From NCBI RefSeq assembly GCF_056712565.1, contig NZ_CM160072.1: a stretch of 64,000 nt of DNA; one strand, written 5' to 3'. The position numbers and the translations under genes were made by a program. Shown in pieces: positions 5,545 through 43,142 of the stretch. Positions within the stretch are counted from its first letter, which is position 1. Each line of letters opens with the position of its first letter. Below the pieces are notes generated by a model that was not told the origin of the DNA, ran no database searches, and worked only from the letters and a program-made list of their open reading frames with translations.

Positions 5545-5583
5545 AGGACGCTTTTAATCACATATGAAAAGCGTCCTTTTTCT
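5545..5583 (+). terminator. Rho-independent terminator downstream of yoaC (possibly shared with convergent yoaH)
   Basis: Inverted repeat AGGACGCTTTT...AAAAGCGTCCT followed by TTTTTCT. Confidence 0.55.
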
Positions 5584-5635
5584 CACAATCAAATAACCAT
5601 CGGCTTCTATAACGAAAGCGATACGGATAAGTGTG

Positions 5636-5815
5636 TTACTCGTCTTCATCCTCAAAACGCGCCACGATTCGCTCGCCGGAATGGTTGGCACGCAGCTCTT
5701 CTGCCACCAGCGCGATTGCCTGGCCGCTGCTCATCCCTTGAGCCATCAGTTCCTGGATCCGCTCGACAGCTTTTTGCTGCTGTTCATGGGTGAGTGAAGG
5801 TAAACCTGCAAACAT
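5636..5815 (-). CDS. yoaH: UPF0181 small protein YoaH (59 aa)
   Basis: Hand translation of minus strand: [59 protein letters not shown]; below the 60-aa ORF-track cutoff. Confidence 0.75.
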
Positions 5816-23852: not shown

Positions 23853-25901
23853 TTACTTGACGGGAGCGGGTTGTTCCGCGGGTCTGGCTTTTTCAAGCTT
23901 CGCCAGATCGAGTGCGATATTCACCGTCTCATCCAGATAAGGATCTGGCTCCTGGTAATCTTTCGGTAGATCATCCAGTTTCTTCAACTCCGGTTTACCT
24001 TCGCGTTTAAAGCGTTCGTTCAAACGCGCCAGACGCGTCGCATCATCTTCATTATTCTCTTTCTCACGCACAGCGTAATTCAGAGAAACGATATTGCGCT
24101 TGTCCTTCATAGCGTTGAAGCGCGCGATATCCTTCATGATGTTCTGGAACTCAGGATCTTTCGCGATACGCGCATTATGTTCCTTCAGCAGCTCCGGTTC
24201 AAAGGCCGTTAAATCTCCTGATTTCACATAAGTCGCGGCATCAATGCTATCCCACGGCAGCGCGTTATCTTCGAATTTCTCACCCGTTTCCGTTTCTTCA
24301 TTACCCGTCGGCATGATGATGTCTGGCGTTACGCCTTTACGTTGCGTACTGCCGCCGTTAACGCGATAGAATTTCTGGATCGTGTACTGCACAGAACCCA
24401 GCGCTGGCCATTCAGGACGTAACATCTGATCGTAAATACGGTTCAATGAACGGTACTGCTGAACGGTGCCTTTACCAAATGTCGGTTCACCCACAACCAG
24501 GGCACGACCGTAATCCTGCATTGCCGCGGCAAAGATTTCTGAAGCCGAAGCACTGAAGCGGTCAACCAGCACCACCAGCGGGCCTTTATAGAAGACCTGT
24601 CCGTCGGTGTCGCTGTCTTCACGAACCTTGCCGTTGTTATCGCGGACCTGAACAATCGGGCCGGATGGAATGAACAGACCGGAGAGCGATACGGCTTCAG
24701 TCAACGCCCCACCACCATTGCTACGCAGGTCGATAATCACACTGCTGACATTCTGTTTTTCCAGTTTCTGCAGTTGCACTTTGACATCGTCTGTCAAACC
24801 CACATAGAAGCCCGGAATATCCAGCACGCCGACTTTCTCTTTACCGACGGTCTTCACCGACATTTTAACCGCGCGGTCTTCGAGACGAATACGTTCACGG
24901 GTCAACGTTACCGTACGGGTCTTGGTCCCTTTACCAGCAGGTAAAATTTCCAGACGAACTTTACTGCCCTTAGGCCCTTTAATTAAGGCCACCACATCAT
25001 CAAGACGCCAGCCAATCACGTCAACCATCGGCTTGCCTGTTTGACCAACACCGACAATTTTGTCACCAACGCTGATAGCTTTGCTCTTCGCTGCCGGACC
25101 TCCTGCCACCATCGAATTGATAACGGTGTAGTCATCATCCATTTGCAGCACTGCGCCAATACCTTCCAGCGACAAACTCATTTCAGTGTTGAACTGTTCG
25201 GTATTACGCGGGGAAAGATAGTTGGTATGCGGGTCGATTTCACGCGCAAACGCCGTCATTGCCAGCGAGAAAACATCTTCGCTGTTGGTTTGCGCCAGAC
25301 GACGAATGGCAAATTTGTAGCGGCGAGTCAGGGTTTCACGAATTTCCTTATCCGTTTTTCCTGTCAGCTTCAGGCTTAACTCGTCGAATTTGACTTTACT
25401 GTCCCACAGCGCGTTCAACTCAGCCTCGTTTTTCGGCCAGGGCGCTTTGCTGCGGTCAAGGTTATAAGTGTCGTTGCCGGTGAAATCCATCGGCTTTTCC
25501 AGTACCGACAAAGCGTACTGGTAACGTTCAAAACGGCGCTTTTGCGCCAGATTGTAGAGATCGTAGAAAACGTCGAGTTTACCTGAACGCAGTTCATCGC
25601 CTAACTCAGTTTTCTTTTTCGCGAACTGTTCAACATCGCTTTCCAGCAGCACATTGTGGCTGTAATCGAGCAGATTCAGGTAGCGGTCAAAGATTTTGGC
25701 CGAAAATGCCTGATCGAGGTCGAACTGGCGATAATGAGAACGGGTGAAGCGCGACGTTACGCGCTCACTCACCGTCGCATGCTGCGTCTCTTCCTTTAAT
25801 ACCGGAATTTGATCAGCACGCGTGATATCTTCTACAGCGAAGGTCTGGCCTGCTATTGCAAGCAGGCCAGCTAACGCGGTAAGCCTAAAAAACATGTTCA
25901 T
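23853..25901 (-). CDS. prc: Tail-specific periplasmic protease Prc (Tsp)
   Basis: ORF-track frame 23853..25949; recognised start MNMFFRLTALAGLLAIAGQTFA (25901); PDZ and S41 peptidase regions. Confidence 0.9.
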   Translation of the reverse strand: MNMFFRLTALAGLLAIAGQTFAVEDITRADQIPVLKEETQHATVSERVTSRFTRSHYRQFDLDQAFSAKIFDRYLNLLDYSHNVLLESDVEQFAKKKTELGDELRSGKLDVFYDLYNLAQKRRFERYQYALSVLEKPMDFTGNDTYNLDRSKAPWPKNEAELNALWDSKVKFDELSLKLTGKTDKEIRETLTRRYKFAIRRLAQTNSEDVFSLAMTAFAREIDPHTNYLSPRNTEQFNTEMSLSLEGIGAVLQMDDDYTVINSMVAGGPAAKSKAISVGDKIVGVGQTGKPMVDVIGWRLDDVVALIKGPKGSKVRLEILPAGKGTKTRTVTLTRERIRLEDRAVKMSVKTVGKEKVGVLDIPGFYVGLTDDVKVQLQKLEKQNVSSVIIDLRSNGGGALTEAVSLSGLFIPSGPIVQVRDNNGKVREDSDTDGQVFYKGPLVVLVDRFSASASEIFAAAMQDYGRALVVGEPTFGKGTVQQYRSLNRIYDQMLRPEWPALGSVQYTIQKFYRVNGGSTQRKGVTPDIIMPTGNEETETGEKFEDNALPWDSIDAATYVKSGDLTAFEPELLKEHNARIAKDPEFQNIMKDIARFNAMKDKRNIVSLNYAVREKENNEDDATRLARLNERFKREGKPELKKLDDLPKDYQEPDPYLDETVNIALDLAKLEKARPAEQPAPVK

Positions 25902-37202: not shown

Positions 37203-39949
<2,747 letters not shown>

Positions 39950-40130
39950 TTATAAGGGTGGCAAAACTCACCGGGGATGCAAGCGAAACAGGGTAGTCAT
40001 TGCTTAGATGATGACAGGTAATGGCGCGGATATCGACTGTTATGCAGACAGAGAAAATCAGCCTGTTCAAATGGCTGTGCGGTTCTGGATAACCCGAAAT
40101 AGTCAACTTCAGGCTATCCAGAGAGCGGAA

Positions 40131-40790
40131 TTACTCCGCCAAAGTACGTTTTTGCTGTTCGAGATCGCGTTCAATGCCTTCACGAACATCCTGGGGGATT
40201 TTCAGCGCATCACCCAGTGCATTCAGGTAACTGCGTTCCATAAAATGGTCAATATCAATAGCCGCGCAGCTCAGGAAATAGATTTCCAGCGCCTCTTCTT
40301 CATTGCGGACCCCGGTAGCCAGGCGTTGTGGATCCAGCGGTTGTTCGATTGCCTGCTCAATGAGTACACGCCCCTTCTCTTCCACACCGGCTTCTCGCAA
40401 TTGCTGGTCGATTGCCGCACGTTCTTTGGCATCAATATGACCATCACTTTTAGCGGCAAAGACCAGCGCAAGGATCAAACGTTCCGTACGCTCATCCAGC
40501 GGCGTACTTTGCGCGCCAAACTGCGGTTCATCCTGATGCGCCGCGCGAATTTTATCTTTGTATTTATTCCACAGCACCGTACCCGCTACCGCTCCGCCGC
40601 CAACCAGTAACGCGTTTGTGCCATATTTCGTAAGAAGTTTACGTGCTGATTTATTTGCGACCAGCAGCCCAGCCAGTCCGCCTAATGCGCCAGGCACTAA
40701 AAGTTTGCCCAATCCCTGATCCGCAGACGAGGAGGTAGAAGAACGGCTTTGCCCAAGCAGGGATTGCAGTTGATTTAACCAGTTAGCCAT
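40131..40790 (-). CDS. yebE: DUF533 inner-membrane protein YebE
   Basis: 219-aa [32 protein letters not shown]... Confidence 0.75.
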
Positions 40791-41116
40791 ATTTGCTCCT
40801 CAATAACCATTTTTAGTGCCTGTAGCATAGCGGATGAGGATGTCAGAAAATGTATATTGAGACAAAAGATGCGCAAATAAGCGGGGCGGTAGGCCGTTAT
40901 TCAAAGAAATTCGCGCCAGGTAAGGTGTTCACTGTATATAAGGTGATAAGGGTATTTTAGGTGAAAGTAGTTTGACGTTTTGAGTGGAACTGTTTGATGC
41001 TGATTGCCCGGTTCGACGCTGCTGCGTCTTCTCAGGACTACGATTGTGTTGCGTTGTAGGGCGGACAAGGCACTCGCGCCGTATCCGCCAACGGTCAATC
41101 GAATTATCAGAAGCCA

Positions 41117-41521
<405 letters not shown>

Positions 41522-41539
41522 TCAGGAGCGCAAGTTGCT

Positions 41540-41830
41540 TCAGGCCGCGTGTGAGGCATCTTCCTCTTCGGATTCAGCACCGACGACCTGTGGGGACGGT
41601 AATTTGCCGGTTTTCAGAATGGTGCTCAGCACATCTTTTTGTTCTGCCAGCCATAGCGAAAGGGCTTCACGTTGCTCATCTTCCATTTGCACTGGAGAAT
41701 TTGTCAGCCAGGTGTCAAGCAGATCGGCCGTATCAAGCATCTTGTCATAAGCATCGGCTTCCTTTTTGCTGGTAAACGACATTTTCTCTTCGCCCTCACG
41801 AATGACTACGTATTTAACTTCAACCGCCAT
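41540..41830 (-). CDS. yebG: SOS-inducible DNA-damage protein YebG
   Basis: 96-aa ORF MAVEVKYVVIREGEEKMSFTSKKEADAYDKMLDTADLL...; LexA box immediately upstream. Confidence 0.8.
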   Translation of the reverse strand: MAVEVKYVVIREGEEKMSFTSKKEADAYDKMLDTADLLDTWLTNSPVQMEDEQREALSLWLAEQKDVLSTILKTGKLPSPQVVGAESEEEDASHAA

Positions 41831-41847
41831 TTGCAGCCTCTCATAAT

Positions 41848-41867
41848 AACTGTGATTTTATACAGTA
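41848..41867. promoter_or_regulatory. LexA (SOS) box in yebG promoter
   Basis: AACTGTGATTTTATACAGTA: CTG-N10-CAG with AT-rich core, 18 nt upstream of yebG start. Confidence 0.75.
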
Positions 41868-41910
41868 TATTTATTTTCAGCTGGGAAATCAACATCAGCA
41901 ATAAAGACAC

Positions 41911-41926
41911 GCGCAAACGTTTTCGT
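41911..41926. promoter_or_regulatory. PurR operator in purT promoter
   Basis: GCGCAAACGTTTTCGT matches PurR consensus aCGCAAACGTTTtCnT, about 40 nt upstream of purT ATG. Confidence 0.7.
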
Positions 41927-41963
41927 TTATACTGCGCGCGGAATTAATCAGGGGATATTCGTT

Positions 41964-43142
41964 ATGACGTTATTAGGCACTGCGCTGCGTCCGGCAGCAA
42001 CTCGCGTGATGTTATTAGGCTCCGGTGAACTGGGTAAAGAAGTGGCAATCGAGTGTCAGCGTCTCGGCGTAGAGGTGATTGCCGTCGATCGCTATGCCGA
42101 CGCACCAGCCATGCATGTCGCGCATCGCTCCCATGTCATTAATATGCTTGATGGTGATGCATTACGCCGTGTGGTTGAACTGGAAAAACCACATTATATC
42201 GTGCCGGAGATCGAAGCTATTGCCACCGATATGCTGATCCAACTTGAAGAGGAAGGACTGAATGTTGTCCCCTGCGCTCGCGCAACGAAATTAACGATGA
42301 ATCGCGAGGGTATCCGTCGCCTGGCGGCAGAAGAGCTGCAGCTGCCCACTTCCACTTATCGTTTTGCCGATAGCGAAAACCTTTTCCGCGAAGCGGTTGC
42401 CGCCATTGGCTACCCCTGTATTGTTAAACCGGTGATGAGTTCTTCCGGTAAAGGGCAGACGTTTATTCGTTCTGCAGAGCAACTTGCTCATGCATGGGAG
42501 TACGCTCAGCAAGGTGGTCGCGCCGGAGCGGGCCGCGTAATTGTTGAAGGCGTCGTTAAGTTTGACTTCGAAATTACCCTGCTAACCGTCAGCGCGGTGG
42601 ATGGCGTCCATTTCTGTGCACCGGTAGGTCATCGCCAGGAAGATGGCGACTATCGTGAATCCTGGCAACCACAGCAAATGAGCCCGCTTGCCCTTGAACG
42701 TGCGCAGGAGATTGCCCGTAAAGTGGTGCTGGCACTGGGCGGTTATGGGCTGTTTGGTGTCGAGCTGTTTGTCTGCGGTGATGAGGTGATTTTCAGTGAA
42801 GTCTCCCCTCGCCCGCATGACACCGGGATGGTGACGCTAATTTCTCAGGATCTCTCGGAGTTTGCCCTGCATGTACGTGCCTTCCTCGGACTTCCGGTTG
42901 GCGGGATCCGCCAGTATGGTCCTGCTGCTTCTGCCGTTATCCTGCCGCAACTGACCAGTCAGAATGTCACGTTTGATAATGTGCAGAATGCCGTAGGCGC
43001 AGATTTGCAGATTCGTTTATTTGGTAAGCCGGAAATTGATGGCAGCCGTCGTCTGGGGGTAGCACTGGCTACTGCAGAGAGTGTTGTTGACGCCATTGAA
43101 CGCGCGAAGCACGCCGCCGGACAGGTAAAAGTACAGGGTTAA
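41964..43142 (+). CDS. purT: Formate-dependent phosphoribosylglycinamide formyltransferase 2
   Basis: 392-aa ATP-grasp [33 protein letters not shown]... Confidence 0.9.

Follow-up and report, generated by a model that had tools for sequence, protein, structure and literature searches.

The REPs of E. coli, also termed palindromic units, were reportedly characterized by Stern in 1984 and by Gilson, Bachellier and Hofnung, and REPINs are said to have been introduced by Bertels and Rainey in 2011. REPs and other stem-loops have also reportedly been described as protectors of mRNA 3′ ends, in work by Newbury in 1987, by Peters in 2012 and by Espeli in 2001, the last concerning attenuation by BIMEs. 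Consensus sequences for the Y and Z2 types of REP are available (Nunvar 2010; PMC2817692), and the GTAG at the foot of the hairpin is needed for binding and cleavage by RAYT (PMC3479197). As 3′-end protectors, REPs and other stem-loops mark the positions at which Rho-terminated mRNAs end, the rut sites following directly after them; such transcripts end at stable stem-loops that lack U-tracts, and exonucleases trim them back to the stem (Dar and Sorek 2018; PMC6061677). REPs have also been credited with stabilising the upstream mRNA (Newbury 1987 and Espeli 2001, as cited in PMC6061677).

The spacer between yebF and yebE, which we analysed within a 64-kb window (the whole stretch of DNA under study), holds an ordinary, eroded copy of this common E. 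coli repeat, and is thus an element of a known kind. The palindrome downstream of yebF is almost certainly one half of a decayed REP pair. Both units resemble the Y and Z2 REPs in being imperfect, GC-rich palindromes of 34-36 nt with a GTAG/CTAC foot and an internal mismatch, and in lying extragenically, in a 3′ UTR. They differ from them in that the Y-type unit (REP-B) reads GGCGGA..TCCGCC instead of the consensus GCCGGA..TCCGGC and carries a further 7-8 substitutions, while the Z2-type unit (REP-A) is in this strain without much of its outer stem and no longer reaches significance. The window is E. coli; its spacer is 100% identical to that of E. coli strain FDAARGOS_536 and 95.1% identical to that of a K-12 derivative. 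Of the local genes only purT is encoded on the plus strand:

37862-39922, minus strand: ptrB
40131-40790, minus strand: yebE
41117-41473 (RefSeq), minus strand: yebF, whose mechanically called ORF extends to 41485
41117-41119: stop codon of yebF
41540-41830, minus strand: yebG
41964-43142, plus strand: purT

The two calls for yebF differ in the start, the mechanical ORF giving 122 aa (MEKNMKKR...) and RefSeq 118 aa beginning MKKR. The YebF protein (WP_001295500.1) is identical across all nine RefSeq E. coli strains inspected, while the neighbouring spacer differs by up to 5.5%. The gap between yebE and yebF comprises 326 bp (40791-41116) and is made up of the following parts:

40791-40885, minus strand: conserved yebE control region (promoter and 5′ UTR), outside the repeat and the sole part alignable to Salmonella and Citrobacter
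40886-41005, minus strand: C-rich, G-poor, AT-rich single-copy tract, a candidate rut region with its core at 40918-40997, directly after the REP pair when read in the sense of yebF
41006-41041, plus strand: REP-A, a Z2-type REP decayed in this strain, GCCCGGTTCGACGCTGCTGCGTCTTCTCAGGACTAC, inverted relative to REP-B
41042-41055, no strand assigned: linker of 14 nt, GATTGTGTTGCGTT, joining the REPs tail to tail, from the CTAC of REP-A to the GTAG of REP-B
41056-41089, minus strand: REP-B, a Y-type REP, read in the sense of yebF as GGCGGATACGGCGCGAGTGCCTTGTCCGCC followed by CTAC
41090-41116, minus strand: spacer of 27 nt from the yebF stop codon to the foot of REP-B

The initial annotation had likened a segment at about 41056-41090 to a decayed REP, and this comparison proved correct: the 34-mer quoted there, GTAGGGCGGACAAGGCACTCGCGCCGTATCCGCC, is located at 41056-41089, and REP-B is a statistically secure member of the REP family. 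As references we read two REPs from K-12, at 5565-5600 (Z2 type, GCCTGATGCGACGCTGGCGCGTCTTATCAGGCCTAC) and 5636-5669 (Y type), which agree with the published Z2 and Y consensus sequences (PMC2817692). REP-B matches the Y-type reference on the minus strand at 26 of 34 positions, above the best match found anywhere in each of 200 dinucleotide-preserving shuffles of the whole window (maximum 23/34). With as many as two mismatches tolerated, the REP tail motif CTTATCMGGCCTAC occurs five times in the window against 0.4 expected, and two of the five matches lie inside the spacer, at 41028-41041 (plus strand, within REP-A) and 41056-41069 (minus strand). Moreover, a covariance model trained on ten other REPs (six from positions 1-50,000 of K-12 and four from the window, at 50.2 kb and 55.3-55.5 kb) recovered REP-B at 41056-41093 on the minus strand with 36.9 bits (E 1.2e-8), at full length and with all pairs standard; once the REPs of the training set are excluded, it is the top match in the window. 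On the yebF-sense strand REP-B is predicted to fold with -19.6 kcal/mol (z -4.0), in the same topology as a canonical REP at 50182 (-23.4 kcal/mol). As is usual for the family, the element is extragenic, between the yebF stop and the yebE start, and its motif recurs, in the window at 50182-50215 and 55298-55502 and at six sites in 50 kb of K-12.

The other REPs of the window are a single Y unit at 50178-50215 (plus strand) and a multi-unit BIME cluster at 55298-55335 (plus), 55374-55407 (plus, partial), 55423-55461 (minus) and 55465-55502 (plus); the REPs at 50.2 and 55.3-55.5 kb score 49-55 bits, four of them having been in the training set of the model. A weak REP-like hairpin at 59424-59459 (minus strand; 15.4 bits, E 0.033), which keeps the outer stem and a UUAC tail and differs in its interior, may be another decayed REP. 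The K-12 RefSeq record (NC_000913.3, 1-50000) carries no REP or repeat_region features despite clear pairs at 5565-5669, 25710-25795 and 39151-39232; since that record is devoid of any REP features, the missing feature between yebE and yebF says nothing about the element.

The description of this locus as a single palindrome held for REP-B and was incomplete, as a second, inverted REP lies at 41006-41041. REP-A matches the K-12 Z2-type reference at 29 of 36 positions, the maximum in 200 shuffles being 24/36. In this strain it scores only 11.4 bits (E 0.53) with the covariance model, whereas the orthologues from four genomes reach 30-39 bits (E 1e-9 to 8e-7) and the one from Escherichia sp. E1V33 reaches 16.4 bits (E 0.012); judged by its orthologues, REP-A is a secure REP that has become degenerate in this strain. 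Its predicted fold is shallower here (-12.3 kcal/mol) than in K-12 (-18.2 kcal/mol). Together REP-A, linker and REP-B form an inverted pair of 84 bp that resembles a BIME (of the BIME-2 or atypical class) or a REPIN: a Y and a Z2 unit stand tail to tail across 14 nt, canonical K-12 pairs having the same arrangement with linkers of 12-16 nt, and one of the K-12 linkers, AGATTGCTGCGAAATC, has GATTG..TGCG in common with the linker found here. Unlike a BIME-2, the locus holds a single pair and not a tandem array. In K-12 the pair falls at about 1929923-1930006. The covariance scores of the two units in the genomes compared are as follows:

This window: REP-A 11.4 bits, REP-B 36.9 bits
K-12: REP-A 35.0 bits, REP-B 30.7 bits
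E. whittamii: REP-A 36.9 bits, REP-B 45.9 bits
Escherichia sp. MOD1-EC7003: REP-A 39.4 bits, REP-B 31.2 bits
SCPM-O-B-8794: REP-A 30.3 bits, REP-B 42.7 bits
Escherichia sp. E1V33: REP-A 16.4 bits, REP-B 43.8 bits

The decay is lineage-specific, and the locus is thus an example of how a REP pair erodes differently from strain to strain: K-12-type strains have a good REP-A and have lost the GTAG of REP-B, while this strain keeps both GTAGs and has a damaged REP-A stem. The GTAG foot of REP-B, intact here at 41056-41059, is changed to CTGG or GTGG in K-12, O128, O55:H7 and other strains. In this the K-12-type copies also differ from a REPIN, as the alteration of one GTAG should abolish cleavage by RAYT (PMC3479197), and the K-12-type copy is therefore probably immobile. 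In this strain, where both feet are intact, there is likewise no sign of recent movement, the site being fixed and single-copy across E. coli.

The spacer occurs in 5425 of 5426 complete E. coli genomes, with one copy per genome, and both REPs occupy the same position in all four of the other Escherichia lineages sampled, so that the conservation across strains by which the REP assignment was to be judged is borne out. For a view beyond E. coli, one genome per species was scanned for an exact YebE N-terminal coding pattern, and the regions upstream of yebE were then aligned; E. albertii and E. fergusonii were not captured by this exact scan. Only 93-95 nt separate the yebF stop codon from the ATG of yebE in four Citrobacter species and in S. 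enterica arizonae and diarizonae, and this gap aligns solely to 40791-40885 of the window. The remaining ~231 nt (40886-41116), comprising the REP pair and the C-rich tract, were seen in the sampled Escherichia genomes only. Since this segment is in all sampled Escherichia and missing in Salmonella and Citrobacter, parsimony makes a gain the most likely explanation, and we consider it very probable that the segment was acquired in an Escherichia ancestor. Since then, it has most likely been eroding through point mutation. The element is thus datable, being in every sampled Escherichia genome and missing from Salmonella and Citrobacter; this Escherichia-specific and datable acquisition, which would have placed a REP pair and a rut-like tract between the SOS operon and the Cpx gene, is the only angle here that we regard as even mildly new.

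Whether the hairpins have been maintained can be approached from the substitutions that they have collected. We counted pairing in 13 sequences, namely nine E. coli strains and the four other Escherichia lineages. In REP-B 100% of the cells in the stem are paired (n=13), with one compensatory change from GC to AU and several switches from U.G to U.A; in REP-A 91% are paired (n=13), with one compensatory change from CG to AU, in two sequences. Controls in which the pairing was slid gave 33-47%. Double-sided changes affect two pairs against 0.4 expected, a number reached by 15 of 500 shuffles. Several of the G.U pairs on the yebF-sense strand would be A.C mismatches if read on the other strand. 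This covariation lends modest support to the view that the hairpins have been maintained, the 13 related sequences being a small set.

These data bear directly on the main rival account, which holds that the element is a neutral relic, that is, a dead selfish REPIN copy with no host function next to an incidentally C-rich tract. Among the nine E. coli strains, which were picked by identity rank and not randomly, nucleotide diversity (pi) is 0.045-0.052 in the REP units, the most polymorphic section of the spacer, compared with 0.033 in the C-rich tract, 0.012 in the promoter module and 0 in the flanking coding ends. A relic would be expected to look like this, and it would equally fit the strain-specific decay (REP-A at 11.4 bits here vs 35 in K-12, and the GTAG of REP-B lost in K-12-type strains), the tolerance of an IS1 insertion in the tract of one strain, and the fact that Salmonella and Citrobacter do without the segment. 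It accords less well with the fully paired REP-B stem in all 13 sequences, including a compensatory change, with an element that has stayed at one site in every Escherichia lineage sampled and in 5425 of 5426 E. coli genomes, and with a C>G bias that persists despite 17% divergence and an indel. We therefore regard a functionless relic as possible, although rather unlikely.

The C-rich tract gives the reading that we prefer, a REP pair with a role in RNA, its second component. Across its 120 nt the tract contains 36 C and 13 G, and its 80-nt core (40918-40997) contains 25 C and 4 G; when all 80-nt windows of both strands are ranked, the core falls in the top 0.04%. A C>G excess of that size is reached at about seven loci in the window, several of them antisense to genes, and the bias is accordingly suggestive and not diagnostic. 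All 13 Escherichia sequences retain it (C/G 1.85-3.0), even though they diverge by 17% on average in pairwise comparison and differ by an indel of ~30 nt. The tract occurs once per genome and so is not itself a repeat. In composition, which is the only respect compared, it matches a Rho-dependent terminator, with ~80 nt of C-rich, G-poor rut-like sequence past the coding end. Likewise, the arrangement of a stable stem-loop without a U-run, followed by a C>G tract, past a stop codon, resembles that of the 3′-end protectors in architecture only.

Several smaller features of the tract were noted. In E. coli Eco_70239 an IS1A is inserted within it (at about position 40964 of the window), with the yebE promoter module on one side and the REP pair, itself free of the insertion, on the other. 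A possible third REP remnant, GTAGGCCG at 40894-40901, agrees with the REP tail over no more than 8 nt and lacks conservation elsewhere in Escherichia, and we attribute it to chance. At 40926-40945 K-12-type alleles read TTTACTGTATATCAGGTGAT and this strain reads CACTGTATATAAGG; the E1V33 and SCPM lineages carry a deletion of these positions. One half of a LexA site, TACTGTATAT, is perfect in the K-12-type allele, but the other half agrees at only 2 of 10 positions, so that the sequence is not a LexA box; the half-site is probably a chance occurrence, even though yebE is reportedly partly LexA-dependent.

For the segment, the initial annotation had favoured a repeat remnant or a terminator over a gene. 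The repeat and the rejection of a gene stand, but an intrinsic terminator does not: the hairpin lacks a U-run on the yebF-sense strand, and a promoter/terminator scan of 40600-41600 found no intrinsic terminator on the minus strand, with no T-run after either REP. The three terminator-like sites that the scan did return lie on the plus strand within yebF and are irrelevant to this question. We likewise set aside the translation-coupled REP effect, which Liang, Rudd and Deutscher reportedly described in 2015 for REPs within ~15 nt of a stop codon; the spacing here is 27 nt, and the effect should not apply.

What we postulate instead is that both REPs would fold into stable hairpins on the LexA-controlled yebG-yebF transcript, and that Rho would load on the C-rich tract at 40918-40997 and stop most yebGF transcription ahead of yebE. 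Exonucleases working in the 3′-to-5′ direction would then trim the RNA to the REP hairpins, whereby the 3′ end of the yebF mRNA would be set and stabilised. It is known that yebG and yebF form one LexA-dependent transcript and that LexA control of yebE is only partial (PMC3009722); leaky termination could give rise to such a partial SOS response, or partial LexA-dependence, of yebE. As a result, the Cpx-regulated yebE would be partly insulated from SOS-driven read-through. Taken as a whole, an old BIME/REPIN-like pair that was gained in Escherichia and acts with Rho at the 3′ end of the yebF mRNA is the explanation that we favour, with some reservation; its functional part, the role of Rho and of the 3′ end, taken by itself stands close to an even chance at best. 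The high polymorphism of the REPs and the loss of the REP-A stem fit weak or no selection and so speak against the mechanism. A search of the literature for yebF together with REP, bicyclomycin or Rho found no data on its 3′ end, on Rho inhibition or on mRNA half-life. In these terms the locus offers a simple case of a possible boundary, made of a REP hairpin and a rut tract, between an SOS-induced operon and a Cpx-regulated gene.

One could go further and speculate that a REPIN with a rut-like tract (~231 nt) was inserted in an ancestor of Escherichia, after yebF and ahead of the yebE control region, and then co-opted as a leaky Rho-dependent insulator between the SOS-responsive yebG-yebF and the Cpx-responsive yebE. 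In Salmonella and Citrobacter the same genes lie 93-95 nt apart without such a barrier. We offer this co-option only tentatively and think it more apt to be wrong than right. If true, it would be a datable case in which a selfish REP element has changed how two stress regulons are coupled.

A role of the pair at the level of DNA would be compatible with the role in RNA proposed above. By analogy with BIME-2, the Y and Z2 units could together form a site bound and cleaved by DNA gyrase; Espeli and Boccard reportedly found in 1997 that gyrase acts on BIME-2, and this action is well established. The BIME-2 elements on which gyrase acts are typically iterated in tandem. The types of unit are the appropriate ones, as Y and Z2 constitute BIME-2 and atypical BIMEs (PMC2817692), but the locus has a single Y-Z2 pair in which both units are degenerate and departs in this from the iterated form. 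We hold a gyrase site to be unlikely.

It has also been suggested, from genomic SELEX with RpoD, that a sigma-70 promoter with the sequence TTGTCC-15-CACAAT lies upstream of yebE, and the published hexamers (PMC3946193) do fall inside the element in the sense of yebE, TTGTCC in an arm of REP-B and CACAAT in the linker. However, these hexamers were chosen by eye within a SELEX fragment and do not correspond to a mapped start site, their actual spacing, both here and in K-12, is 14 nt, an unfavourable distance for sigma-70, and neither E. whittamii nor E1V33 conserves them. Moreover, a consensus scan of 40600-41600 returned no promoter-like site on either strand, and Salmonella and Citrobacter express yebE from the 93-95-nt module, which has no such hexamers. 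A promoter for yebE inside the REP pair is accordingly quite improbable.

The same scan result, no promoter-like site on either strand, counts against a separate small RNA derived from the REPs, of the kind represented by naRNA4 (REP325). The element does give a weak match to the Rfam model of naRNA4 (RF02564) at 41059-41135 (plus strand; 25.6 bits, E 0.076), and it has the Y-REP hairpin in common with that family. The score is far under the gathering threshold of 59.5, and the sequence match is confined to the first hairpin (REP-B); the second half overlaps the coding end of yebF and the second hairpin is not homologous, so that the element is not a member of the family. An Rfam scan of 39800-42100 with E up to 10 gave only this sub-threshold match and noise from eukaryotic snoRNA, miRNA and lncRNA models. 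We judge such an RNA very improbable. The portion that the naRNA4 model aligned as a second hairpin corresponds to a weak predicted hairpin at 41105-41131 (minus strand; 6 + 3 bp), which has the yebF UAA stop codon in its loop.

Two minus-strand ORFs shorter than 70 aa had been noted to overlap the segment, and both were confirmed:

40901-41098, minus strand: ORF of 65 aa with a TTG start
40929-41117, minus strand: ORF of 62 aa with an ATG start that overlaps the yebF stop as TAATG

Read as a gene for a small protein, the 62-aa frame has in its favour that the TAATG overlap of stop and start resembles translational coupling, and both frames are open in most of the E. coli strains sampled. Across Escherichia, however, the frames are truncated or shifted in all four of the other lineages: the 62-aa ORF is cut to 10 aa in MOD1-EC7003 and to 28 aa in E1V33 and is frameshifted in SCPM, 51 aa being also among the altered lengths in other Escherichia, and the 65-aa ORF ranges from 13 to 41 aa in the four lineages and has 19 aa in E. 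coli strain 98203. Most differences between strains alter the amino acid, with ten amino-acid changes in the 62-aa ORF between this strain and K-12 alone, the ORF sequence is the REP pair read in frame, and none of the 30 RefSeq genomes listed has a CDS or other feature annotated there. We give virtually no credence to a gene at this position, and for correct annotation neither of the small ORFs should be called as one.

The spacer had further been described as unexplained by the map of coding sequences. This applies to ~231 of its 326 bp, but 40791-40885 is the conserved control region of yebE. This region has the lowest diversity in the spacer among the nine E. coli strains (pi 0.012), and it holds an invariant block, ATTTGCGCATCTTTTG ... 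TTCCTGACATCC. The first of these motifs, ATTTGCGCATCTTTTG, at 40863-40878 in the sense of yebE, shows almost no variation from E. coli through to Klebsiella and Enterobacter. It precedes the ATG of yebE by ~75-88 nt, and its TTTGC-N5-TTTTG arrangement, similar to a CpxR box (GTAAA-N5-GTAAA) in inverted orientation, makes it a candidate for such a site; yebE is a listed member of the CpxR regulon (PMC7657598). At the loci of K. oxytoca and Enterobacter sp. 10-1 there is no yebF, and a yebG-like gene (C-terminus ...KAKAA) stands directly upstream of yebE.
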